Shown: one piece after another, positions 1 to 10,502 of the stretch
Layout of the letters: the number at the start of each line of letters is the position of its first letter
How positions within the stretch are numbered: position 1 is the stretch's first letter
IMG/VR virus record: IMGVR_UViG_2721755662_000004
Direction: 5' to 3' (one strand)
From: a virus
Lineage: Duplodnaviria; Heunggongvirae; Uroviricota; Caudoviricetes
DNA: 64,000 nucleotides
Notes under the pieces: model-generated
Databases searched by the model: none
What the model was told of the DNA's origin: nothing
The model's input: the letters and a program-made list of their open reading frames with translations, nothing else
Position numbers and translations under genes: made by a program

Positions 1-1164
1 TTATGCTTTCTTTGCATCCTCAAAAACCTCAGGGTGGGACAAATTTGGGACATCGTCACCCAATATGTCGTCAATTTTCCTCGCGTGCTCTGTCAAATGA
101 TTAGGTGCAAGGTGTGCGTACCTACGCACCATTTCGATAGACTCCCAGCCGCCCATTTCCTGAAGTACTGACAGTGGTACACCTGACTGAATTAACCAAC
201 TGGCCCAGGTATGGCGGAGGTCATGAAAACGGAAATTTTCAATTCCTGCCCGACGACATGCTGTTAACCACGATGTGTTATAGTCCAGGCGCATCTTTCT
301 GATGCTTGGTGTCATTGTCCCGTCAGGCCTTCTGGCAGCAGTGGTATAAACAAACACCCAGCGGTGATGTTTGCCTATTTGATCACGCAACACCTTGCAG
401 GCAGTGTCATTCAGTGCGACCCCAATAGCGCGGTTTGACTTACTGTCTTCAGGGTTTACCCAGGCAACACGTCGCTGCATATCGATTTGTTGCCACTCCA
501 GATTAATAATGTTTGATCTCCTCAGGCCAGTTGCCAGTGCAAATTTAACTACAGATTTCAGGGGATCAGAACATGCATCAATGAGTCTCCTGGCTTCTTC
601 TTTTTCCAGCCATCTCACGCGTTTGTTTTTTACGGCAGGTATTTTGATTACAGGTGCTTTTTCAAGCCATTTCCAGTCTCGCTCTGCGGCGCGCAGAATA
701 GCCTTGATCATTGCCAGGTGTGTTGCTTTTGTTTGCGTGCTCACCGATTTAGGTATATAGGCTGGTGGTTCTTTCCCTTTTCTTAATGCAGCCTCCACCT
801 GCAACTTCCATCTCTCCTTTGTTTTTCGGTTATACGCTTTGCTGATAACTGAGTAGATCATTGCCTCCGATATATCCTTAATCCTTATTCCCTCGAAATG
901 CTCAATCCAGAATGCGATTCTGGATTTATCGGAATCGATGGATTTCTTGTCGGCTTTTTCCTCAAGCCATCTCAGGCAGGCTTCTTCGAAAGTGACATCT
1001 GGCATATCCCCCAGTCTGTCTACTCGCCAGAGTTCTGCTTTTCGCTTGTCGTGCAACTCCTGAGCTTGCCGCTTGTCCTTTGTGCCAAGAGACTCCTTAA
1101 TTCGCTTCCCGCCCGGGAGCGAGTACGAGGCGTACCATATTTCACCTCTGCGGAAGAGTGACAT
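1..1164 (-). CDS. int: Tyrosine recombinase / phage integrase
   Basis: 387 aa; C-terminal catalytic region with [10 protein letters not shown] and RRYAHL motifs; sits at the prophage edge. Confidence 0.9.
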
Positions 1165-1391
1165 TTTCTTTCCTCTGTTATGCCATCACCCGCGCTCACC
1201 TGGACAGTATGCAGCGGTGAATGAAGTGCTGCAATGCAGGCTTGCCGGGTTGTGAGATAAGGTGATCTTTTACCGGAAGAATTTTTTCGGGTTGCCTGTA
1301 GTCGGCCCGTTCGTATCCAGTTAACAGCTGTTGGCCTTGATATCTTGAGAAACTTACAGGCCTCTTTGAGGGTGATACTGTGTGAATCCAT
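1020..1391 (-). CDS. xis: Putative excisionase (Xis/AlpA-like HTH)
   Basis: Internal Met of ORF 1020..1484; [24 protein letters not shown] resembles excisionase HTH; overlaps the int start as in lambda. Start and length uncertain. Confidence 0.45.
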
Positions 1392-1425
1392 ATTTTCGCC
1401 ATTAAAAACCGCCCGAAGGCGGTTG

Positions 1426-1677
1426 TCAGTTGATTGATATGCGGCGCATTTTTCGAAGGCTGGCAATATGCTTTTCCTTCTCAATTTCTGCTTTAATCAT
1501 GTGTAGTTCGTTGTGATCGATTCGCTCAAATTCTGCATTAAATGCGCTAATTGAAGCGGCTCTGGTTCTCCCATCCAGCCTGCGGAAGATTACCTGCGTC
1601 AGAGTGATTTTGCAGACTTCAACCGGATAGTTGTTGGCATCGACGAAAGACTGCCCGCGCTGGATTAGAACGAACAC
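1426..1677 (-). CDS. Hypothetical protein
   Basis: 83-aa ORF between xis and exo; no recognisable motif. Confidence 0.3.
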   Translation of the reverse strand: MFVLIQRGQSFVDANNYPVEVCKITLTQVIFRRLDGRTRAASISAFNAEFERIDHNELHMIKAEIEKEKHIASLRKMRRISIN

Positions 1678-1728
1678 CGGTAGTATTCCTTAATTGTCAT
1701 ATCATTTGCACCTCGTTGCTACTGGCTA

Positions 1729-2406
1729 TCACCATTGCTCCCCAAATACAAAACCAATTTCAGCCAGTGCCTCGTCCATTTTTTCGATGAACTCCGGCAC
1801 CATCTCGTCAAAACTCGCCATGTACTTTTCATTCCGCTCAATCACGACATAATGCAGGCCTTCACGCTTCATGCGCGGGTCATAGTTGGCAAAGTACCAG
1901 GCATCTTTTCGCGTCACCCACATGCTGTACTGCACCTGGGCCATGTAAGCCGATTTTATTGCCTCGAAACCACCGAGCCGGAATTTCATGAAATCCCGGG
2001 AGGTAAACGGGCATTTCAGTTCAAGGCCGTTGCCGTCACTGCATAAACCATCGGGAGAGCAAGCGGTGCGCATACTTTCGTCGCGATAGATGATCGGGGA
2101 TTCAGTAACATTCACGCCGGAAGTGAACTCAAAGAGGGCTCTGGCGTCGTTCTCGTACTGTTTTCCCCAGGCCAGCGCTTTAGCGTTAACTTCCGGAGCC
2201 ACACCGGTGCAAACCTCAGCCAGCAGGGTGTGGAAGTAGGACATTTTCATGTCAGGCCATTTCTTTCCTGAGCGGGGTTTTGCTATCACGTTGTGAACTT
2301 CTGAAGCGGTGATGACGCCGAGCCGTAATTTGTGCCACGCATCATCCCCCTGTTCGACAGCTCTCACGTCGATCCCTGTACGTTGCAGGATAATGTCCGG
2401 TGTCAT
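1729..2406 (-). CDS. exo: Lambda-type 5'-3' exonuclease (Red alpha)
   Basis: 225 aa, near-identical to my recollection of lambda Exo ([40 protein letters not shown]...). Confidence 0.95.
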
Positions 2407-3188
2407 GCTGCTACCTTCTGCTCTGTGACTTTCTGTTTCAGGAATCCAAGAACCTTCACAGCTTCAGCCTGTGTTAGTTCTGAAGATGTGTAAATGTTGC
2501 GGCGAAAAATCTGGGAACAGAGCGGCAACAGGTCGTCATCCCACGTTTTTTCCATGGAAGTAAGAAGGGCGTTAATTTCCGACATGGTTTCTTCGTTAAC
2601 CGGGGTGATGTCGCGTTCCGGCTGACGTTCTGTAGTATATGCAGTATTTTCGACAATACGCTCGGCTTCATCCTTGTCATAGATGCCAGCAAATCCGAAG
2701 GCCAGGCGAGCACACTGAATCATGGCTTTGTGCCGTAACATCCGTTTGGGATGCGACTGCCACGGTCCGGTGATTTCTCTGCCTTCGCGGGTTTTGAATG
2801 GTGCGCGGCGACATTCATCCATCCACTCGGTAACGCAGATCGGGTGATTGCGATCTTTGCGGTAAATCCGGCATGTACAGGACTCATTGTCCTGCTCAAA
2901 GTCCATGCCATCAAACTGCTGGTTTTCATTGATAATGCGGGACCAGCCATCAACGCCAACCACCGGAACGATGCCGTTCTGCTTGTCAGGGAAGGCGTAA
3001 ATTTCTTTCGTCCAGGGATTAAGGCCGTACTGGTTGGCGACGATCAACAATGCGATAAATTGCGCATCGCTGGCATCACCTTTAAATGCCGTCTGGCGAA
3101 GAGTGGTGATTAGTTCCTGTGGGTCGACAGAATCCATGCCGACACGTTCAGCCAGCTTCCCTGCCAGCGTTGCGAGTGCTGTACTCAT
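2403..3188 (-). CDS. bet: Single-strand annealing protein Bet (Red beta)
   Basis: 261 aa, matches lambda Bet over its length; start overlaps exo. Confidence 0.95.
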
Positions 3189-3193
3189 CCGTT

Positions 3194-3490
3194 TTATACC
3201 TCTGAATCAATATTAATTTGGTGACGGGCGATGGTTTCAGCCATGTAGCGGATGTGTTCTGCCATGCGTTCCTGAAAATCGACATCGTCATCAAATGCAC
3301 GGGAAATAGCTTTTTTGCTGGCCCCGTGACGTTGCAGATTATCGATGCATAGCGATTCAAACAGGTGTTGGGGCAGACCTTTTTCCAGGTCGTCTGCCAG
3401 CTCAGCTTCAGTTTCTTCACGGGCAATTTGCTGGTAGTGTCGTGCCCATGACTGCTCTTCAATGCGATCGGGGATAAGCCAGGCATTCAT
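3194..3490 (-). CDS. gam: Gam, RecBCD inhibitor (short GamS form)
   Basis: 98 aa matching the C-terminal 98 residues of lambda Gam (SWARHYQQ...[12 protein letters not shown]...). Confidence 0.9.
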
Positions 3491-5559
3491 GATTTATCAC
3501 CTTCGAAATTTTCAAGCCTGTTGGCAATCATGATGGCGATATCAGGGATTGCTGGCGCTGTGGCTATACATGCGGGGTTGGCGCACAAACCATAGACGGC
3601 GGCAATCACGAGCTGTCTTTTCCAGTCGAGAGTTACTGGCTCAGAATTGGCGTCATCGCCGGACGTATCACTGCCTGGCTCGTTCTGAACAACGGTTTCG
3701 CCCTCCTGAGCGGCATCAACAGAGTTTTCCTGAATGATCTTCTCCTCAGTTTGTGCTGAGTCTTCTCCATCAGCGGCGTCATTTTCTCCAAAAGTTTCAG
3801 CGTAAGTTTCATCTCCCATTACTGGACCACAGTCAGGGCAATGGCCGCCACCGTTCTGACTGCATGTGGTGCAAACCTTTTCCACTTCCTGTTGCATTAC
3901 TGGCCCTGGCTGTTGCTCTTCTGGCCCGTTTTGTTGCGTATCCGGGCTGTTTTGTCCCGCTTCTGGGGCAATTTGTTCCACTTTGGGCTGATTCTGGTCC
4001 TCAGTGTCGCGAGTCTGGATCCCCTTCACCCACTTCGGATCAGCAGGGTTACTGATGCCTTCAACGAATTCTCCACGCGAGGCAGCCAGTAATTTGTCGG
4101 CATCGACTGGATTTTTTGGGGGGATGTTTTCCCTGGCTTTATTGAGTTCCTCCCTCAGTTCCTGGTATTTCGTTTCTACAGATGAGACATTTTCCAGTGA
4201 TTGCGTGTCCTCATTATGTTTAACTGGAATTTCTTCCACTGATTCAGGCGCTGCCTGTTCATTAGCCATTGTGTCCGATGTTTGTTGCTTTTCTTCATCG
4301 CCATGTTTTCCTTCTGCTGTTCCGCGCTGCGGCATCGGTGCTGATGAGCGACCGCAGGCAATTTCCACGATTTCCGGATCCGGGTTAGCGTGATCGGTTT
4401 CGGTCAACACTTTGTTGAGATATTCAGTCACGCGTGCCGGGATGGCCTCAATGCCGATTGGTGCTTCTTTCACGGAAGCCACCACAATGGCGCGGGAATA
4501 ATCCAGCCCACCGGGCATGGCGATAAATTTGTCGCGAAAAACAGAAAAGGGCGGCTTATTCTCTGACACGATTTCTTCAACGCGTTTTGCGTGTGCTGGG
4601 TGCAGGTTATAAATATCCACATCCATTGAACGGGCCAGAACGCCGGTGGCTACATCTCGTGCGAGTGATGTCTTATCATGTTTGAATCCTTCACCACGAT
4701 CGGTAATATTTCCGCCGCCAGCGTTAGCACCGGAAGGCGTACGGGTAATGCCTGAAACATAATTTCCGTTCTGCCATTCTTTTGTCAGCAGGCCCTGATC
4801 AAGGTAGTCAGTTTTCATCCAGGTGGAAATGAACTTGTCGAATTCAGCCGGGCTGATGCGATGATTTGCAGAGTGGGGGAATGCTTTCCCTACAGATTCA
4901 GCCAGGCGACTAAGGTGATAGTTCGTCAGTTTATCCAGTTCATGATGCGCGGCGCGCACAGCAGTAAGCAGGCTCTGAAGGTAACTGTCCTCTGTGTCCA
5001 TCTCCATACGGATCACGTTATTGCGTTGTTCTGGTGTGGCATGATGCCGGTATTTTCCATCTTCATCTTTGCTGAATAAGAAGAGGTGAAGGAAGCGATG
5101 AGTAAGGCTCAGAGTGGCGACGGGAATTTCACACTCAGAACAGTCATCGTCGCTGTCCGGGGATTCGCTTTTCTCCACATCATCCGGAATAGTTCCGTCC
5201 AGGTTATCGTTGTCATCGCCAGCAGTTGTGGCATCTTCACCGTTGATGTTGTCATCGAAGGGGATAGCCATCATGGTGATGCCATCGTTACCGCCTTTTT
5301 CATAGCGGTTGCAGAATTCAGTATCAAACACGCCTTCCGGTGGAAGGTCATTCACGACGGGGAAATTTACGCGAACGGGTTTTTTGAAATCATCCTCGTC
5401 GTAGCCTGCATCGTCCATGGCTGCAATGCAGCGGGAAACTGCGACAGAAAGTTTTCTGGCCTCGGTCCAGAAAAAACCGCCTTTGATGCCAAGGCGTTTT
5501 CTGACTTTATCGTTTTTTGCTTCGCAGTGTAGTGCAAAAGTCTGTTTATCAGCGCTCAT
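3487..5559 (-). CDS. Large acidic hypothetical protein
   Basis: 690-aa ORF with D/E-rich low-complexity stretches and a Cys cluster ([16 protein letters not shown]); stop overlaps the gam start. Confidence 0.6.
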
Positions 5560-5666
5560 TGTATTTAAACCTCTGGCTGGATTAGAATTAGCGACCCTTT
5601 GTCTGATTTCTCCGAATACGGTGACGCAGGGAGAAATCCGGTAGCCTGCGCTGCCGGATTTTTATT

Positions 5667-6053
5667 TCAGTGGAAGGTTGCCTGGTTTGCTGTTTTGTGA
5701 GTTGTTTTTCCCTTTTCGTGCTGGCATTCAGGGCAGTCGCACTCAGAATTTTCTCTTGCAAACTCAAGAGCCTGTGCAAGTGTATGGATTTGTTGTACTC
5801 CAATGTTGCTTCTGACAACTTCACGTGCAGCATGAATATATGGGCTTGGTGTTTTGCCATTTAACCCACATAAAACAAAACGACTGTCCTTATATTCGTT
5901 ATTTCCAACTTCTGTAAGCACTGAAAAAGAAAATACAAAGTCGATTTTGTATTCTTTGCATATTTTACTGATGCGTTCTGCAATTTCTTTGAGTTCATTT
6001 ATTGCATCAGGACTGGTTTTGGAAAATATTTCATTTTGCGCAAGTTCTTTCAT
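5667..6053 (-). CDS. Hypothetical protein in AT-rich segment
   Basis: 128 aa; C-terminal Cys/His cluster (ECDCPECQHE); local AT-richness suggests acquired DNA. Confidence 0.4.
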   Translation of the reverse strand: MKELAQNEIFSKTSPDAINELKEIAERISKICKEYKIDFVFSFSVLTEVGNNEYKDSRFVLCGLNGKTPSPYIHAAREVVRSNIGVQQIHTLAQALEFARENSECDCPECQHEKGKTTHKTANQATFH

Positions 6054-6136
6054 TTTGATTTTTCCGTGATTGATAATTAATGCGGTTTTATTTCGGCTTG
6101 TCTGTTACAGATATGGAAGGTGTATTTTATTACTCG

Positions 6137-6376
6137 TCACAACGACGCTGCTTTTACGGGTAAGCCATCGCGCCCGATGAAAACTTTAATCATGCAGTCG
6201 GTAATGCATGTTTTTGTTGTGAAGTTACGAATATAGAGTTTTCTCTTTTCAATATTGTTTGCTGAAGCGATATATGTCCGACCTTCATGAAGAACATAAT
6301 CGCCAGGCGTCACGCACTGACGTGGTATTTCATCAGTTCCGAAGTGATGAGCAATCATAATTATCTCCATTTTCAC
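6137..6376 (-). CDS. Hypothetical protein in AT-rich segment
   Basis: 79-aa ORF. Confidence 0.35.
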
Positions 6377-6814
6377 AAATGAACTTTGTTGATGCGGTGC
6401 CTGGTGCCTCCAGGTGACGTTAACCAGTTAACAACTAACGCCGGGTCAGGGGACGATGACTTTCCGTGACATCCTGTCGGTTTAACTGTTCCGCGTGCGC
6501 ATAGCCGCATTCACCGCATCACAAAATTCACTTTAAAAAGGGCGGACATCAGCAATCGGCAAACCGATATCCGCCAAGGGTTACACACAGCAATGTTGTT
6601 ATTCACAACCGGAAGCGCACGGTCGAAGAAATCTAACGACAATCCTTCTATGGGAAAGAGTCTTCGCCTCGCGCTTTCGTGTAGTACCCTGGCTTTCAGG
6701 GTAATGTCTGTTCAGTAAACTGAGAGTGCAGGAACTCACCCGTGTCCGGCGCACGATCTCCACCTCACCCGTGGAGAACTCCTCAACTACAAACCCCGTA
6801 AGGAGAGTGAATTT

Positions 6815-7024
6815 ATGACACAAGAAGAAAAAGTGATGTTTCTGATGCGGCTGGCTGTCGATACTTACAACACACAATTTACGGAGAAAGATATACCTCA
6901 AAAGGCAGTTCCTGCCGCGGTAGATAAGGGCGGTGCTATTGCCGTATTTTACGATGCATTTGAATCATTTTTTAATGAAAAACTCGACGCTGTTAGCGAC
7001 TTCGGAACATCGAGTAATAAATAA
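6815..7024 (+). CDS. Hypothetical protein, opposite orientation to the surrounding operon
   Basis: 69 aa; consensus Shine-Dalgarno (AAGGAG) 7 nt before the ATG; 3' end overlaps the convergent ORF 6993..7373. Confidence 0.45.
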   Translation: MTQEEKVMFLMRLAVDTYNTQFTEKDIPQKAVPAAVDKGGAIAVFYDAFESFFNEKLDAVSDFGTSSNK

Positions 7025-7373
7025 CGTTCATTACGGTTCTTAAACAACAATCAGTGGGCTTGATGTTGTTCTTTTCAAGCTCACTTGCCATCACTTCCAT
7101 TATTCTTGCACTTACACGAATTATTTGGTGGCTGTAAGCGACGCAACTGTCGCTGATATTGCTGTTTATTTCTATTACTTCATTTTCACTGGCGGCGCTA
7201 AATTTGGATATGCCGTTTCCATTGTCCTGTTTCAGTGCTGTTTCCGCTATCCGGATGCGTTCCTGCGTTGCGGAATTTGGGCTAAGTCGATAAACCTGTC
7301 TGGCATCTTCCAGAAGCAGGGCGATAATGTGCTTCAGTTCTGTTTCATTCATAGTTAACTCCGGTAGTTGCAA
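6993..7373 (-). CDS. Hypothetical protein
   Basis: 126-aa ORF; likely start at the internal Met (MNETELKH..., about 7352). Confidence 0.4.
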   Translation of the reverse strand: MQLPELTMNETELKHIIALLLEDARQVYRLSPNSATQERIRIAETALKQDNGNGISKFSAASENEVIEINSNISDSCVAYSHQIIRVSARIMEVMASELEKNNIKPTDCCLRTVMNVIYYSMFRSR

Positions 7374-7383
7374 TTTATTAATA

Positions 7384-7569
7384 TCAGGCGGTCAGCTCTT
7401 TAAGCTTCTGAACTGCTTTATTCATTTCATCCATACAGTCGATGAATTCGTCCAGTTTAAGCTGCATTTTTCCGGCGGCCTGAAGAATTTCAAGTTTTAA
7501 GGGCGCAAGTTTTTTGTTGTAATCGACGCAGGTTATTAACTCGCGGCCAGTAATATTTTGGCTTGGCAC
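7384..7569 (-). CDS. Hypothetical small protein
   Basis: 61-aa ORF; overlaps the next ORF in another frame, so one of the two may be shorter. Confidence 0.3.
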   Translation of the reverse strand: MPSQNITGRELITCVDYNKKLAPLKLEILQAAGKMQLKLDEFIDCMDEMNKAVQKLKELTA

Positions 7570-7774
7570 GAGATCCGGGTCTTGAACCTACACAAACTAT
7601 ATAGCTCTCTTCTTTCCTCGGAAGGCCAGGTGCATCTAGCAGACGGCCTAGTTCGAATTTTTTTACGTTGACACCAGGAGGAATCACCTCGACGATAAAC
7701 CCGATTTTTACCTTCGTTACACCGTTTGATGAGCTTGACCATTTAACTTCATCGTTCAATTTGAACTTCATCAT
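7490..7774 (-). CDS. Hypothetical protein immediately downstream of N
   Basis: Starts MMKFKLNDEVKW directly after the N stop. Confidence 0.4.
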   Translation of the reverse strand: MMKFKLNDEVKWSSSSNGVTKVKIGFIVEVIPPGVNVKKFELGRLLDAPGLPRKEESYIVCVGSRPGSRAKPKYYWPRVNNLRRLQQKTCALKT

Positions 7775-7779
7775 TAACC

Positions 7780-8085
7780 TCAATCGTAATAAGCCGGAAT
7801 TGATTTTCCGCGTTGTTTCTGGCGGCCTGAGCAAGTCACACCCATTTCACTGCGTGGTTTGCGGTAGTAAATACGGTTCTGTTTACTCTCGACTTCTTCT
7901 GCCTTCTTGCAGCGAAGGCTTCCGAGTGATACTGCTTTGTCTGCTCCGACGCAACCAGAGATCTTTAGCGCAATCTTCCGTGTCAGTCTTTCACTACTGC
8001 GCCGCTCTGCAATAAGTTCTTCCCTGCGAGCTTTATAGCGGCTTTTTGCCGTACCTTTGGATTCTTTCCAGATTATGGTTACCAT
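7780..8085 (-). CDS. N: Antitermination protein N
   Basis: 101 aa from the internal Met with AAGGAG upstream; N-terminal arginine-rich motif (KGTAKSRYKARREELIAERR); C-terminus ...VTCSGRQKQRGKSIP aligns with lambda N (...ITCSGRQKIKGKSIP). Confidence 0.8.
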   Translation of the reverse strand: MVTIIWKESKGTAKSRYKARREELIAERRSSERLTRKIALKISGCVGADKAVSLGSLRCKKAEEVESKQNRIYYRKPRSEMGVTCSGRQKQRGKSIPAYYD

Positions 8086-8279
8086 GATGGTCTCCTTTAA
8101 GTGGCTTTGGTGTATGACGCGTCGAGGTGTTTTTCTTCTCGATCGCGGCCTTGCAACTGAAATTCGCGTCATCCCCAAAACCACTTAGATTTTGGTCTCA
8201 ACGGTTAGGTTGAGAGTCCATCAATGTTAAAGAGCCGGCCAATCTGTTCCGTTTGGCTTCCAGCGTCCTGCTGTTGAAT

Positions 8280-8370
8280 TGAAGATAACCTAAGTTATCT
8301 GGTTGTGCAATAACTATATTTATCATTTTATGAAAAACGTTATAAATGACTGATAACAAAAATATTTTAT
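8280..8370. promoter_or_regulatory. Putative OL/PL operator-promoter region
   Basis: Palindrome GATAACCTAAGTTATC (8284-8299) and further ATAAC/GTTAT half-sites matching those between cI and cro. Confidence 0.5.
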
Positions 8371-8418
8371 TTTTTGTGGTATCCGCGTGATATTTTCAAG
8401 GGGGAAAGGCTGATTGTT

Positions 8419-8640
8419 ATGGGTGATTGCATGTTAATCGAAGGGGAATTTGGTGTGTTGCACCAGCGGGTAGTCGAAATTCTAGGGGTGTCGTTGCTTG
8501 AGGTTATTGCTACTGGGGAAGCTATTTCAGCAGATGCTATTGCGGGAATGATCCGAGTGCTTCACCATGATGAATTGGATGATCTCGCTGTGAAGTTAGC
8601 TATAGATGTGTTACTTCAGGATATGCGACTGTGTAATTAA
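8419..8640 (+). CDS. Small hypothetical protein in the immunity region, opposite strand to cI
   Basis: 73 aa from the ATG at 8419, preceded by a G-rich SD (AGGGGGAAAGG); occupies the slot where lambda has rexAB. Confidence 0.4.
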   Translation: MGDCMLIEGEFGVLHQRVVEILGVSLLEVIATGEAISADAIAGMIRVLHHDELDDLAVKLAIDVLLQDMRLCN

Positions 8641-8668
8641 GTAAATAAAACCCGGCACTGGAGCCGGG
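8641..8668 (-). terminator. Intrinsic terminator downstream of cI
   Basis: Stem CCCGGC / GCCGGG followed on the minus strand by a T-run (TTTTATTT). Confidence 0.55.
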
Positions 8669-8793
8669 GGGATTTAGAAATGGCATTTTATGAATTGGCT
8701 ACTTGGCGAATGGTTTACCATCGGTGGTATTGAGCACAATAAAAGGCCGTTCTTCGTGAGTGTTCTTATAGCAAAAGTTCAGTTGGAGTCTGA

Positions 8794-9501
8794 TTACCAG
8801 CTATGTGATGACCAGAACACTCGCCCTATGATTCTTACGTTTTTGTAGAATTCTTCTCTGTTCATTACTTCATCAGGATACTCTTCGCGGTTTATCGATC
8901 TGATAATTACCGATGTTGGCGTGGCTATGAGCGTTTTTACCCTTAACAAATCAGCTTGGCAAATTGCATATGTTTTACCATCCCTGATGCTCGTATCTTG
9001 CGTGTTTACCCCCACCACATCACCATCATGGAGTGTTGGCTCCATGCTTTGCCCAACAACCCTGACCAACTTTGCCGCTTTTTCTGGAACTCCCATTTTT
9101 TTCAGGTAATAGCGCCTAAAAACTAGAGAGAATTCTGCGGACTCCTCCAATGCACAACTTCCTCCGCCAGCTGAAAGTGAAATATTTAGAAGGGGGAGCG
9201 CAACAAATTCTTCATTATCATTTTGATGATCATCCCAGGCGATAGCTTTTAAAGATGATTCCCGAGCATTAGATGGCTCTTCTGCGCTCTGTGGTCTCAT
9301 TGACCCTATACCAGAGCTTAGCCATTCAGGGCGAACTCTTAACGCGTTGGCTAATTCGACCATTTTACGTGATCCGGTTGTTTTACCAGATGACATCTTT
9401 TGTATGGCTGGTTGTGATACCCCCACCATGTCTGCAAGTTGTGCTTGTGACAACCCGGCTGAACTCATGGCGGCATTTAGTCTTTCTGCGAATGTTTTCA
9501 T
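8794..9501 (-). CDS. cI: CI-type repressor (HTH plus S24 LexA-like autopeptidase domain)
   Basis: 235 aa; N-terminal HTH (LSQAQLADMVGVSQPAIQKM); C-terminal GQSMEPT...DGD peptidase signature. Confidence 0.9.
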   Translation of the reverse strand: MKTFAERLNAAMSSAGLSQAQLADMVGVSQPAIQKMSSGKTTGSRKMVELANALRVRPEWLSSGIGSMRPQSAEEPSNARESSLKAIAWDDHQNDNEEFVALPLLNISLSAGGGSCALEESAEFSLVFRRYYLKKMGVPEKAAKLVRVVGQSMEPTLHDGDVVGVNTQDTSIRDGKTYAICQADLLRVKTLIATPTSVIIRSINREEYPDEVMNREEFYKNVRIIGRVFWSSHSW

Positions 9502-9611
9502 ACCTGTAATCTATAACCACGGTTATCAAAAGTAAAACAACAATTGTTATTGCCCTGGTGTATAACTCATGTTATTTTTGGTTATGCTTTATTTGCTGTA
9601 GAGGTATGCTC
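9502..9611. promoter_or_regulatory. Putative OR operators with divergent PRM/PR
   Basis: Palindromes ATAACCACGGTTAT (9514-9527) and TATAACTCATGTTAT (9561-9575) between divergent cI and cro. Confidence 0.6.
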
Positions 9612-9836
9612 ATGAATTTAGTGATTCAGCGAGCCTTGAATATTGTTGGCAGTCAAAAACGACTTGCAGCTGATTGCGGCGTATCACAGCCCGCTGTTCA
9701 TAAATGGTTGCGAGGCGGAAAAGTTTCTCCTGAAAAAGTTTTCGCTATCGTTAATGCCACCAATGGTCAGGTTAAGGCTTACGAAATTCGCCCGGACTTA
9801 CCGCACCTGTTTCCTCATCCGAACCAGGCTGAATAA
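9612..9836 (+). CDS. cro: Cro-like HTH regulator
   Basis: 74 aa from the ATG at 9612 with GAGG SD; HTH (LAADCGVSQPAVHKWLRG); divergent from cI. Confidence 0.75.
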   Translation: MNLVIQRALNIVGSQKRLAADCGVSQPAVHKWLRGGKVSPEKVFAIVNATNGQVKAYEIRPDLPHLFPHPNQAE

Positions 9837-9952
9837 GTAACACCGCTCTTTAACATTGCTGGTCGTTCACCTCTAACAGGGTGAGCAAACATCAGTGGCA
9901 AACCCATTGGGGATTGCCGCTTAACCCCATATCAATATAGGAAAATTAACAA

Positions 9953-10249
9953 ATGTCACAAACAAGTTACAGCAAACTGTCACAGCGCGATATCGATCGC
10001 GCTGAAACGGATTTACTTATCAACCTGTCAGCTCTGACGCAAAGGGGACTGGCGAAGATGATTGGCTGCCATGAATCGAAGGTCAGTCGTACCGACTGGC
10101 GATACATCGCGGCGATTTTATGCGCGTTCCAGATGGCATCTGATATCAGTCCGATCAGCCGGGCTTTCCAGCATGCCATTAACGTTCATGCAAATAAAAA
10201 ACGTCCGGTTGGGGCCGGACGTTCTGAGCAAATCCTGATGAACATCTGA
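9953..10249 (+). CDS. cII: CII transcriptional activator
   Basis: 98 aa; C-terminus NKKRPVGAGRSEQILMNI matches lambda CII (NKKRPAATERSEQIQMEF). Confidence 0.85.
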   Translation: MSQTSYSKLSQRDIDRAETDLLINLSALTQRGLAKMIGCHESKVSRTDWRYIAAILCAFQMASDISPISRAFQHAINVHANKKRPVGAGRSEQILMNI

Positions 10250-10323
10250 TATTCAGGCAGGGCATGGAGCAATACACGGGAATAATTCTGCCACATCTGG
10301 AAGAATTTCGCCAGCAACAACAC

Positions 10324-10470
10324 CAACCGCAGCAGCCTGAAGCCGATTGGGTTAACCCGGAGATACCGGGACCGTCTGTGAAGATGTGCAGTCACACCAA
10401 TGTGCAGTCACACCAACCGCAGCAGCCTGAAGCCGATTGGGTTAACCCGGGAGATACCGGGACCGTCTGC
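10324..10470. repeat. Two direct copies of a 57-bp unit plus a 15-bp tandem repeat upstream of the replication gene
   Basis: CAACCGCAGCAGCCTGAAGCCGATTGGGTTAACCCGG... at 10324-10380 and 10414-10470, with a third, interrupted copy at 11163-11243 inside the O-like gene; GTGCAGTCACACCAA x2 at 10383-10416. Confidence 0.8.
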
Positions 10471-10502
10471 GGTATGGAGTAAATCTTGTATGCGAGGGGA
10501 CT

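Follow-up and report, generated by a model that had tools for sequence, protein, structure and literature searches.

A stand-alone, nuclease-less homologue of the RecE N-terminal region encoded directly ahead of gam-bet-exo

Results

The 690-amino acid (aa) protein encoded at positions 3487–5559 (minus strand, ATG start) of the window, by which we mean the whole 64,000-nucleotide stretch of Caudoviricetes DNA analysed here (IMG/VR record IMGVR_UViG_2721755662_000004), is almost certainly a stand-alone, nuclease-less RecE N-terminal scaffold of the ‘RecE-2’ type, in which conserved parts alternate with acidic linkers, whose family carries three interchangeable C-terminal ends, and whose gene reached its present form by mosaic joining. 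The whole of our best explanation, which couples this identity as a RecE scaffold to an accessory mechanism in recombination, we consider evenly balanced.

The open reading frame (ORF) was confirmed as originally predicted, and its homologues are under purifying selection. PGAP gives the ORF identical coordinates in an E. coli genome with 100% identity, and 690 stop-free codons would occur by chance with a probability of roughly (61/64)^690, about 1e-14. Reading of the sequence revealed a Shine-Dalgarno-like AGAGG at 5570–5574 (minus strand), 11–15 nt 5′ of the ATG, and a second such site, AAGGTGA, within the tail-coding sequence at 3497–3503 (minus strand), 7–13 nt ahead of the gam ATG. The gene ends in GAT AAA TCA TGA, and the gam ATG lies inside the final ATGA (3487–3490, minus strand), so the predicted overlap of its stop with the gam start is present; by itself, this overlap makes translational coupling of the two genes plausible. 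The genes that follow, all on the minus strand, are gam (3194–3490; 98 aa, the GamS-length form; Pfam PF06064, E 4.8e-65), bet (2403–3188; a RecT-family annealase by Pfam) and exo (1729–2406; YqaJ/lambda exonuclease by Pfam). From the cI-like repressor gene (8794–9501) to int (1–1164), every gene is on the minus strand and in lambda order. Because of this gene order, we place the 690-aa ORF in the early-left operon with exo, bet and gam, in agreement with the earlier claim. An Rfam scan of window positions 1–12,000 gave no matches, and a repeat search inside the 690-aa gene returned nothing notable.

Profile and pairwise searches related the protein to the N-terminal part of RecE. It matches PF06630 (Exonuc_VIII) at aa 55–197 with 48 bits against a cutoff of 25 (Pfam), PHROG 607 with an E value of 2e-260 over profile positions 1–617 of 883, and NCBIfam NF007259 over model positions 1–598 of 877 with 740.4 bits, which is below the equivalog cutoff of 1269. 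By BLASTP, aa 43–578 of K-12 RecE align with aa 51–635 at 51% identity, rising to about 89% in the core, and an O111 RecE-like protein (1049 aa) aligns with aa 1–611 at 88% identity. RecE (exonuclease VIII) of the Rac prophage (E. coli K-12 b1350, 866 aa) has in common with the 690-aa protein the PF06630 N-domain, the core motifs, an RGEFVxGISDPxDPKW motif, a CxxC-x7-CxxC element and acidic linkers, and it occupies the same early-left slot downstream of kil/ydaE. Thus, the size and composition that had been thought unusual for this position are not: Rac-type prophages have RecE in the same slot, with N-terminal ∼600 aa that are homologous and equally acidic.

The two proteins differ at their C-terminal ends. 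RecE contains the PD-(D/E)XK nuclease (PF12684, RecE aa 615–850) that defines exonuclease VIII, whereas the 690-aa protein does not; PF12684 was not found in it at E ≤ 0.1 but was found in K-12 RecE (E 4e-28) and in the O111 RecE-like protein (E 5e-13). After aa 580, AlphaFold2 predicts only disorder and two helices, and the resulting 48-aa C-terminal helical hairpin is missing from RecE. The downstream genes also differ, recT being next to recE and gam-bet-exo next to the 690-aa ORF. Because the nuclease domain is absent, ‘exodeoxyribonuclease VIII’ is, going by the sequence, the wrong name for this protein, and it is predicted to lack 5′-3′ dsDNA exonuclease activity. The original prediction regarded homology to a characterised recombination protein as incompatible with its reading. 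Such homology does exist, to RecE, but it is restricted to the functionally obscure part of RecE and does not include the nuclease domain.

The protein can be divided into conserved parts and disordered linkers, all encoded on the minus strand. An N-terminal alpha/beta domain (aa 1–104; 5248–5559; pLDDT 84–98) overlaps the start of the PF06630 Pfam match and is followed by acidic disordered linker 1 (aa 105–140; 5140–5247; net about −15, from composition and AlphaFold2). Alignments and the predicted structure delimit a conserved all-alpha core (aa 141–412; 4324–5139), which acidic disordered linker 2 (aa 413–456; 4192–4323; dN/dS 0.7–0.8, AlphaFold2) separates from a long helix with a conserved short motif at aa 487–510 (whole part aa 457–513; 4021–4191; alignments, AlphaFold2). 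Linker 3 (aa 514–560; 3880–4020) is disordered, rich in Q, P and E, and holds the mosaic junction. Beyond it lie a CxxC-x7-CxxC element (aa 561–580; 3820–3879), acidic disordered linker 4 (aa 581–639; 3643–3819; net about −20), which is very variable between homologues, and, in the nuclease domain’s place, a conserved C-terminal helical hairpin (aa 640–690; 3490–3642).

The 272-aa core carries the motifs RTxSGxNAGGGxxTDR, DxDIYN, PGxLDYSRA and LTETDH between aa 272 and 390. Twelve close homologues share them without variation, a diverse 12-sequence core alignment shows them unchanged or almost so, and they are 80–89% conserved across 65 representatives. Remote-homology searching and structure prediction, suggested at the outset as checks, returned RecE N-terminal homology and, for the core, a predicted fold that matched nothing among solved structures in a PDB fold search; PDB sequence searches with the 690-aa protein alone and with a core profile also gave no matches. 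The invariant polar residues of the core (T286, D287 and R288; D353, Y354, S355 and R356; E387; H390) would suit an active site and a binding surface equally well.

The predicted Cys cluster was located at C563, C566, C574 and C577, which form the CxxC-x7-CxxC element. All four residues are kept in every one of 12 close homologues, K-12 RecE among them, but just 7 of 85 family representatives have the cluster. The model confidence here is only about 60 (pLDDT), and the zinc ribbon is putative.

The protein is as acidic as had been claimed, with a pI of 4.56 and 126 D+E versus 67 K+R (net −59). Its most acidic runs (aa 101–140 and aa 581–640) coincide exactly with the segments that AlphaFold2 predicts to be disordered (pLDDT < 50), and they are under the weakest sequence constraint (dN/dS about 0.55–0.8); the net negative charge of the linkers is kept family-wide though their sequence varies. 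T7 Ocr, ArdA and lambda Gam are compact folds in which carboxylates are held in a fixed DNA-like array. Similar to these proteins, the 690-aa protein is strongly acidic, encoded by a phage or mobile element, and early, and Gam is the product of the next gene. In contrast to the rigid surface of Ocr, ArdA and Gam, its acidic residues lie in predicted disordered linkers, and no Ocr- or ArdA-like fold was found in a fold search of the predicted structure. DNA mimicry in its usual structured form, which the composition had originally suggested, is therefore not supported, the acidic runs being disordered and fast-evolving. The acidic disordered segments may nonetheless have a role of some kind, and the protein may bind host proteins.

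In prophages of the Enterobacterales, the same scaffold occurs with three C-terminal ends: a PD-(D/E)XK 5′-3′ exonuclease, a DnaQ/Rv2179c-like 3′-5′ exonuclease, and the hairpin tail. Among 84 representatives of at least 450 aa, PF12684 was found in 19 and PF16473 in 14, and RecT was fused in three. PF16473 was C-terminal in all ten proteins tested. The scaffold-DnaQ/Rv2179c-like fusions, from Klebsiella, Citrobacter, Kluyvera, Enterobacter and O157 prophages, have the PF06630 N-domain and core as in the 690-aa protein, but in place of its hairpin they end in a 180-aa PF16473 exonuclease (E about 1e-66 to 1e-71); they are annotated ‘exonuclease’ or ‘3′-5′ exonuclease’. Each type has its own neighbours. 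The PD-(D/E)XK form has recT directly downstream in at least 22 loci, and the DnaQ type is followed by xis/int with no annealase. The tail type is followed by DUF7740/xis/int outside Escherichia, and always by gam-bet-exo in Escherichia and Shigella. Some prophages with tail-type or DnaQ-type proteins have no recognisable annealase or Exo nearby.

Nucleotide comparisons traced how the present gene was joined. Identity to the full-length O111 RecE-like gene is 95–99.8% up to about aa 520 and about 70% thereafter, the mosaic junction, at which a stretch of 96% identity stops, lies near window position 3974, and lambda-like DNA (92.6% nucleotide identity) starts about 21 nt inside gam. A Rac-type scaffold has recombined, within the disordered linker, onto a block that comprises the putative zinc ribbon, the tail and a gam-bet-exo module of lambda type. 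The gene is transcribed together with this module from pL.

The tail is a conserved 48-residue helical hairpin with a ‘QGLCANP’ motif. A regular expression located the motif at the very end of at least 23 of the 85 representatives, and phmmer placed the tail at the C-terminus of 27 proteins, some only 25–35% identical. When the last 99 aa were compared with phages by tblastn, the only matches were to the same gene family. Docking of the tail on lambda Exo, Bet or Gam is disfavoured, tail-type proteins being found also where those genes are missing. It is extremely improbable that the tail spans the inner membrane and so anchors to it an acidic domain in the cytoplasm. The E. coli tail is hydrophobic, one 19-residue window averaging about 1.75 on the Kyte-Doolittle scale when calculated by hand, but orthologous tails in other genera are amphipathic, with Q, N, D and E in the same helices (for example YQQQLTIAALQGLCANPAYCTTSDEIPEMACLMAQAII), which led us to reject the anchor, and AlphaFold2 gives a two-helix hairpin instead. 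A very improbable reading of the entire gene is that it is an inert recE remnant, left when the nuclease domain and recT gave way to a lambda-type gam-bet-exo block, and kept only as ribosome-binding context for gam. Such an origin would fit the clear mosaic junction within the gene, the start of lambda homology at gam, and the absence from lambda, Rac and the O111 gene of any homologue of the last approximately 300 nt. However, more than 100 clusters hold proteins of 680–700 aa, so that full length is preserved among variants 77–99% identical to the 690-aa protein; dN/dS among homologues is 0.22–0.28 over the whole gene and 0.11–0.19 in the tail; and proteins from distant genera in which no gam lies downstream end in the same tail motif. 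These data on selection and distribution largely refute the remnant. A truncated pseudogene was likewise rejected, on length conservation, purifying selection and the distribution of the tail. Within the nuclease-less clade, to which the tail value also refers, dN/dS is 0.14 in the core and 0.11 in the helix, and the core compared with K-12 RecE gives 0.09. Of 5426 complete E. coli genomes, 98 carry the gene at full length; the prophage PhiR5_2 is 99% identical, and the nuclease-less architecture recurs in distant Enterobacterales.

Discussion

How might a RecE scaffold with no nuclease act? We tentatively favour a role as a recombination accessory, in which the 690-aa protein would be a non-catalytic adaptor in DNA-end transactions. 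It would correspond, in trans, to the RecE N-terminal region, whose presence in cis boosts RecET linear-linear recombination. Its core would contact a target that is itself conserved, either DNA ends or a host DNA-metabolism protein, and the C-terminal end would supply an effector or, in the 690-aa protein, recruit one. In the work of Fu et al. in 2012, the RecE N-terminal fragment reportedly may have failed in trans, which would speak against this role. The N-terminal ∼600 residues of RecE have been known since 2012 to raise linear-linear recombination (direct cloning) strongly, by a mechanism that is obscure (PMC11611040, PMC11610958), and RecE with this region deleted keeps its exonuclease and basic recombination activity intact (PMC11611040). 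A strictly recombination-linked role is weakened because there are tail-type and DnaQ-type prophages with no recognisable annealase or Exo nearby. Since tail-type proteins occur in the absence of a phage exonuclease or annealase, lambda Exo, Bet and Gam are less likely partners of the tail than the scaffold itself or some host protein.

A target in the host would also accommodate a different function. A conserved host protein may be what the core and hairpin bind, so as to neutralise or commandeer it; an immune sensor, a repair nuclease or part of the replisome would be examples. The acidic linkers would then be nucleic-acid-like decoys or spacers, and the nucleases of the sister proteins would be optional extras. 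The ‘sequestration’ idea in the original prediction survives most nearly in this form, which we regard as doubtful. The scaffolds that lack a phage recombinase nearby speak for it, as does the tail motif, whose retention across genera with differing phage neighbours suits a conserved host partner; the linkers keep negative charge rather than sequence, host-takeover genes typically sit in the early-left operon, and RacC, the neighbour of RecE, is a retron blocker while RecE is a retron trigger (bioRxiv 10.1101/2020.06.22.160242). Yet no known anti-defence or DNA-mimic fold was matched, PADLOC-DB models gave 0 families at E ≤ 0.01 against the 690-aa protein, the acidic runs are disordered rather than a rigid phosphate mimic, and the sole functional datum on the homologous region of RecE concerns recombination (PMC11611040).

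Another alternative is that the core is itself an enzyme of a new fold, distinct from the PD-(D/E)XK nucleases, with the Gly-rich loop and the invariant T-D-R, D-Y-S-R and E-x-x-H residues forming an active site that acts on DNA, a nucleotide or a protein. The invariant or near-invariant cluster of polar and charged residues and the GGG loop do sit in a domain with pLDDT > 90, purifying selection on the core is very strong (dN/dS 0.09–0.14), and the scaffold stands alone as a gene in several prophages. We nevertheless judge catalysis decidedly unlikely: Pfam and NCBIfam give no catalytic family beyond RecE, the PDB offers no match by sequence or fold, binding modules just as typically take the form of all-alpha domains with conserved loops, and the deletion of this region leaves RecE with exonuclease and basic recombination activity (PMC11611040). 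Elements of the two alternatives can be combined, although we think the combination unlikely: the RecE N-terminal scaffold may be an autonomous module of a new all-alpha fold with enzyme-like residues, aimed at a conserved host component for counter-defence or repair hijack, with the PD-(D/E)XK, DnaQ-like and hairpin ends as interchangeable effector or recruitment cassettes.

Nuclease-less ‘RecE-2’ proteins of lambdoid phages have been noted in passing, with obscure roles, in a recent article (Genome Res 2025, PMC12315714), and the description given there fits the 690-aa protein, a likeness by description only. That article gives no analysis of them, and four points come from the present work: the hairpin conserved at the C-terminus, the modularity of that end in three forms, the data on selection and the orphan core fold. 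The P22 proteins Abc1 and Arf, non-essential accessories of a recombination module described in the same article as having obscure molecular functions (PMC12315714), resemble the 690-aa protein by role and position only: all lie in or beside a lambdoid Rec module and are neither nuclease, annealase nor main RecBCD inhibitor. Unlike the 690-aa protein, Abc1 and Arf are small.

These results correct an annotation error, RefSeq, GenBank and PHROGs naming a nuclease-less protein ‘exodeoxyribonuclease VIII’ or ‘exonuclease VII’. RecE/RecT is a recombineering workhorse, and its RecE N-terminal region exists naturally as a separate, selected protein directly ahead of lambda gam-bet-exo. The 690-aa gene thereby provides a ready-made trans test of RecET-like linear-linear recombination by lambda Red, and the core motifs, the short conserved motif, the Cys4 element and the tail define targets for mutagenesis. 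Models of how the scaffold works are constrained by its pairing with nucleases that act in opposite directions. If the scaffold does prove to be an autonomous module, the stand-alone form described here would be its natural ‘minimal’ version and would reveal the role of the N-terminal 600 residues of RecE.

Results

The 690-aa ORF begins with ATG and runs across 3487..5559 on the minus strand, and profile and sequence matches identify its product as a homologue of the RecE (exonuclease VIII) N-terminal region. It matched Pfam PF06630 (48 bits; cutoff 25) and PHROG 607 (E 2e-260, profile positions 1–617 of 883); NCBIfam NF007259 scored 740 bits, below its cutoff of 1269, over model positions 1–598 of 877. 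BLASTP identity was 51% to K-12 RecE aa 43–578 and 88% to aa 1–611 of a 1049-aa RecE-like protein from an O111:H8 strain. Both of these proteins carry the PD-(D/E)XK nuclease domain PF12684, whereas Pfam found no PF12684 in the 690-aa protein, where a 48-aa segment stands in place of the nuclease. The original prediction had named clear homology to a characterised recombination or replication protein as counting against it; the match to RecE is homology of this kind, confined to the N-terminal region. In public records the protein appears under the names “exodeoxyribonuclease VIII,” “RecE family exodeoxyribonuclease” and “exonuclease VII,” because annotation was transferred from the N-terminal match. 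Such nuclease naming is a systematic annotation-transfer error across public records; mislabelled nuclease-less entries include PV340546.1, KF766125.2, NC_029120.1, NZ_CP023061.1 and PHROG 607.

The ORF ends in AAA TCA TGA, and the ATG within ATGA is the start codon of gam (3194..3490; PF06064, E 4.8e-65), followed on the same minus strand by bet (2403..3188; RecT family by Pfam) and exo (1729..2406; YqaJ by Pfam). The stretch from about 21 nt inside gam to where exo ends aligns with lambda 33091..31350 at 92.6% DNA identity. Every gene from a cI-like repressor down to int lies on the minus strand in the order seen in lambda, which places the ORF in the early-left operon, as predicted. Judged by this gene order, it would be co-transcribed with Gam, Bet and Exo. 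An AGAGG Shine-Dalgarno-like site lies 11–15 nt upstream of the ORF (minus strand), and the ATGA overlap together with AAGGTGA before the gam ATG makes translational coupling to gam plausible. In one variant of the gene the overlap with gam is 23 nt, versus 4.

Several other features of this operon, all on the minus strand, were observed. A terminator-like hairpin (CGCCTT-N7-AAGGCG, then GTTTTTT) at 5478–5496 falls within codons ~22–30 of the 690-aa ORF; since the peptide encoded there is conserved, it may be a coincidence, or it could be a terminator overridden by N antitermination. ORF 7780–8184 contains GTAKSRYKARREELIAERR, which resembles the arginine-rich motif that binds RNA in the N protein of phage phi21; this resemblance suggests a phi21-type N antiterminator heading the early-left operon. 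Directly upstream of the 690-aa gene, a 128-aa ORF (5667–6053) sits where racC, a retron blocker, sits in Rac; it had no significant match in Pfam or PADLOC, and related phages keep it beside the 690-aa gene. Between exo and int, an 83-aa ORF (1426–1677) encodes a DUF4222 protein (E 2.8e-15). Elsewhere in the window, a direct repeat of ~70–90 nt occurs at 10313–10381, 10403–10472 and 11152–11244, two copies just upstream of a 360-aa replication-initiator-like ORF (10503..11585, plus strand) and one inside it; the repeats are candidates for iterons or a replication origin.

AlphaFold2, run on an 85-sequence alignment, predicted four high-confidence regions: an alpha/beta domain (aa 1–104), an all-alpha core (aa 141–412), a helix with a conserved short motif (aa 457–510) and a C-terminal two-helix hairpin, or tail (aa 640–690, pLDDT ~80). 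The acidity (pI 4.56, net charge −59) and the Cys cluster (CxxC-x7-CxxC, aa 563–577) are as originally described. However, the composition is not unusual. All 85 family representatives are acidic (pI 4.4–5.6, net charge −11 to −75), and acidity is therefore a trait of the whole family, true RecE nucleases included. In the 690-aa protein it peaks at aa 101–140 and 581–640, and the core-to-tail linker is net negative in every representative, with a sequence that evolves almost freely. In the predicted structure the acidic residues lie in disordered spacers and not on a rigid DNA-like surface, which argues against DNA mimicry in its rigid form; the initial observation stands, and its interpretation is supported in part.

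This conserved N-terminal scaffold is found with three alternative C-terminal ends: PD-(D/E)XK, PF16473 (an Rv2179c/DnaQ-like 3'-5' exonuclease) or the tail. Of the 84 representatives that are 450 aa or longer, 19 carry PF12684, 14 carry PF16473 and three a fused RecT. In at least 22 loci recT directly follows a PD-(D/E)XK form. PF16473 was C-terminal in 10 of 10 forms tested, with xis/int next, and no annealase was found in those loci. Tail forms in Escherichia and Shigella are always followed by gam-bet-exo. At four tail-form loci outside Escherichia (L012, L044, L048 and L051) a DUF7740 protein, excisionase and integrase follow, and no Exo or annealase family was found among the larger upstream ORFs; the small DUF7740 protein differs from the window's DUF4222 protein. 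Apparent direct scaffold-RecT fusions occur in a few members, including representatives in alignments A3 and A4, and may be real fusions or frameshifted assemblies; a Citrobacter braakii locus (L009, 7308–8729) with a RecT-like segment at aa 388–473 is another candidate.

The gene is kept at full length (680–700 aa, 77–99% identity) in more than 100 clusters, and in 98 of 5426 complete E. coli genomes. Within the nuclease-less clade, dN/dS was 0.22–0.28 for the whole gene, 0.14 for the core, 0.11 for the helix (aa 457–513), 0.11–0.19 for the tail and 0.55–0.8 for the acidic linkers; core comparison with K-12 RecE gave 0.09 (dS 0.78, dN 0.07). The tail motif, approximately L-x-[WYF]-x-Q-Q-L-x-I-A-A-x-Q-G-L-C-A-N-P-A ... 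[DE]-[DE]-[IL]-P-x-[MI]-A, forms the extreme C-terminus of 27 proteins, some merely 25–35% identical overall, and a regex matched it in 23 of 85 representatives. The family is small: of 1.84 billion cluster representatives, 208 belong to it at E≤1e-3. In our genome scan it was seen only in Enterobacterales.

DNA comparison indicates that the gene is a mosaic. Identity to the O111 gene is 95–99.8% until ~aa 520 (window ~3974) and ~70% beyond; this drop puts the swap point inside a disordered linker. Nothing corresponding to the final ~300 nt was found in lambda, Rac or the O111 gene. The putative zinc ribbon, last linker and tail move together with lambda-type Red genes.

Discussion

The 690-aa protein belongs to the RecE N-terminal scaffold family, lacks a nuclease and is under selection. 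Nuclease-less RecE-type proteins (“RecE-2”) have been reported, as have DnaQ-like nucleases within or close to Rec modules (PMC12315714); new relative to the published accounts we found are the conservation of the tail, the three-way cassette arrangement on a single scaffold, the selection pattern and the orphan fold.

Two reviews (PMC11611040, PMC11610958) say that what the RecE N-terminal domain does is unknown and, in their passages citing Fu et al. 2012, state that linear-linear recombination is efficient with full-length RecE and not with the nuclease domain alone. By analogy with this sole functional datum on the homologous region, we tentatively favor a role for the 690-aa protein as an accessory or adaptor in DNA-end transactions. 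The scaffold is joined to nucleases of both polarities or to none, and tail forms occur without a phage recombinase; lambda Exo and Bet are therefore less likely as its conserved target than DNA ends or a host protein, and the tail probably partners with a host protein or with the scaffold itself. A host-directed hub or counter-defence factor is a rival reading that we rate only slightly lower. An enzyme of a new fold is a further rival, which we think unlikely. A decaying fragment is ruled out by the kept full length, the low dN/dS and the tail motif in distant homologues, and an inert remnant is correspondingly very improbable; a membrane-anchored protein is the least probable reading. An accessory role in DNA-end transactions remains our preferred, if tentative, account. 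The 690-aa protein is a variant of RecE and would be a natural trans-acting version of its unexplained N-terminal region.
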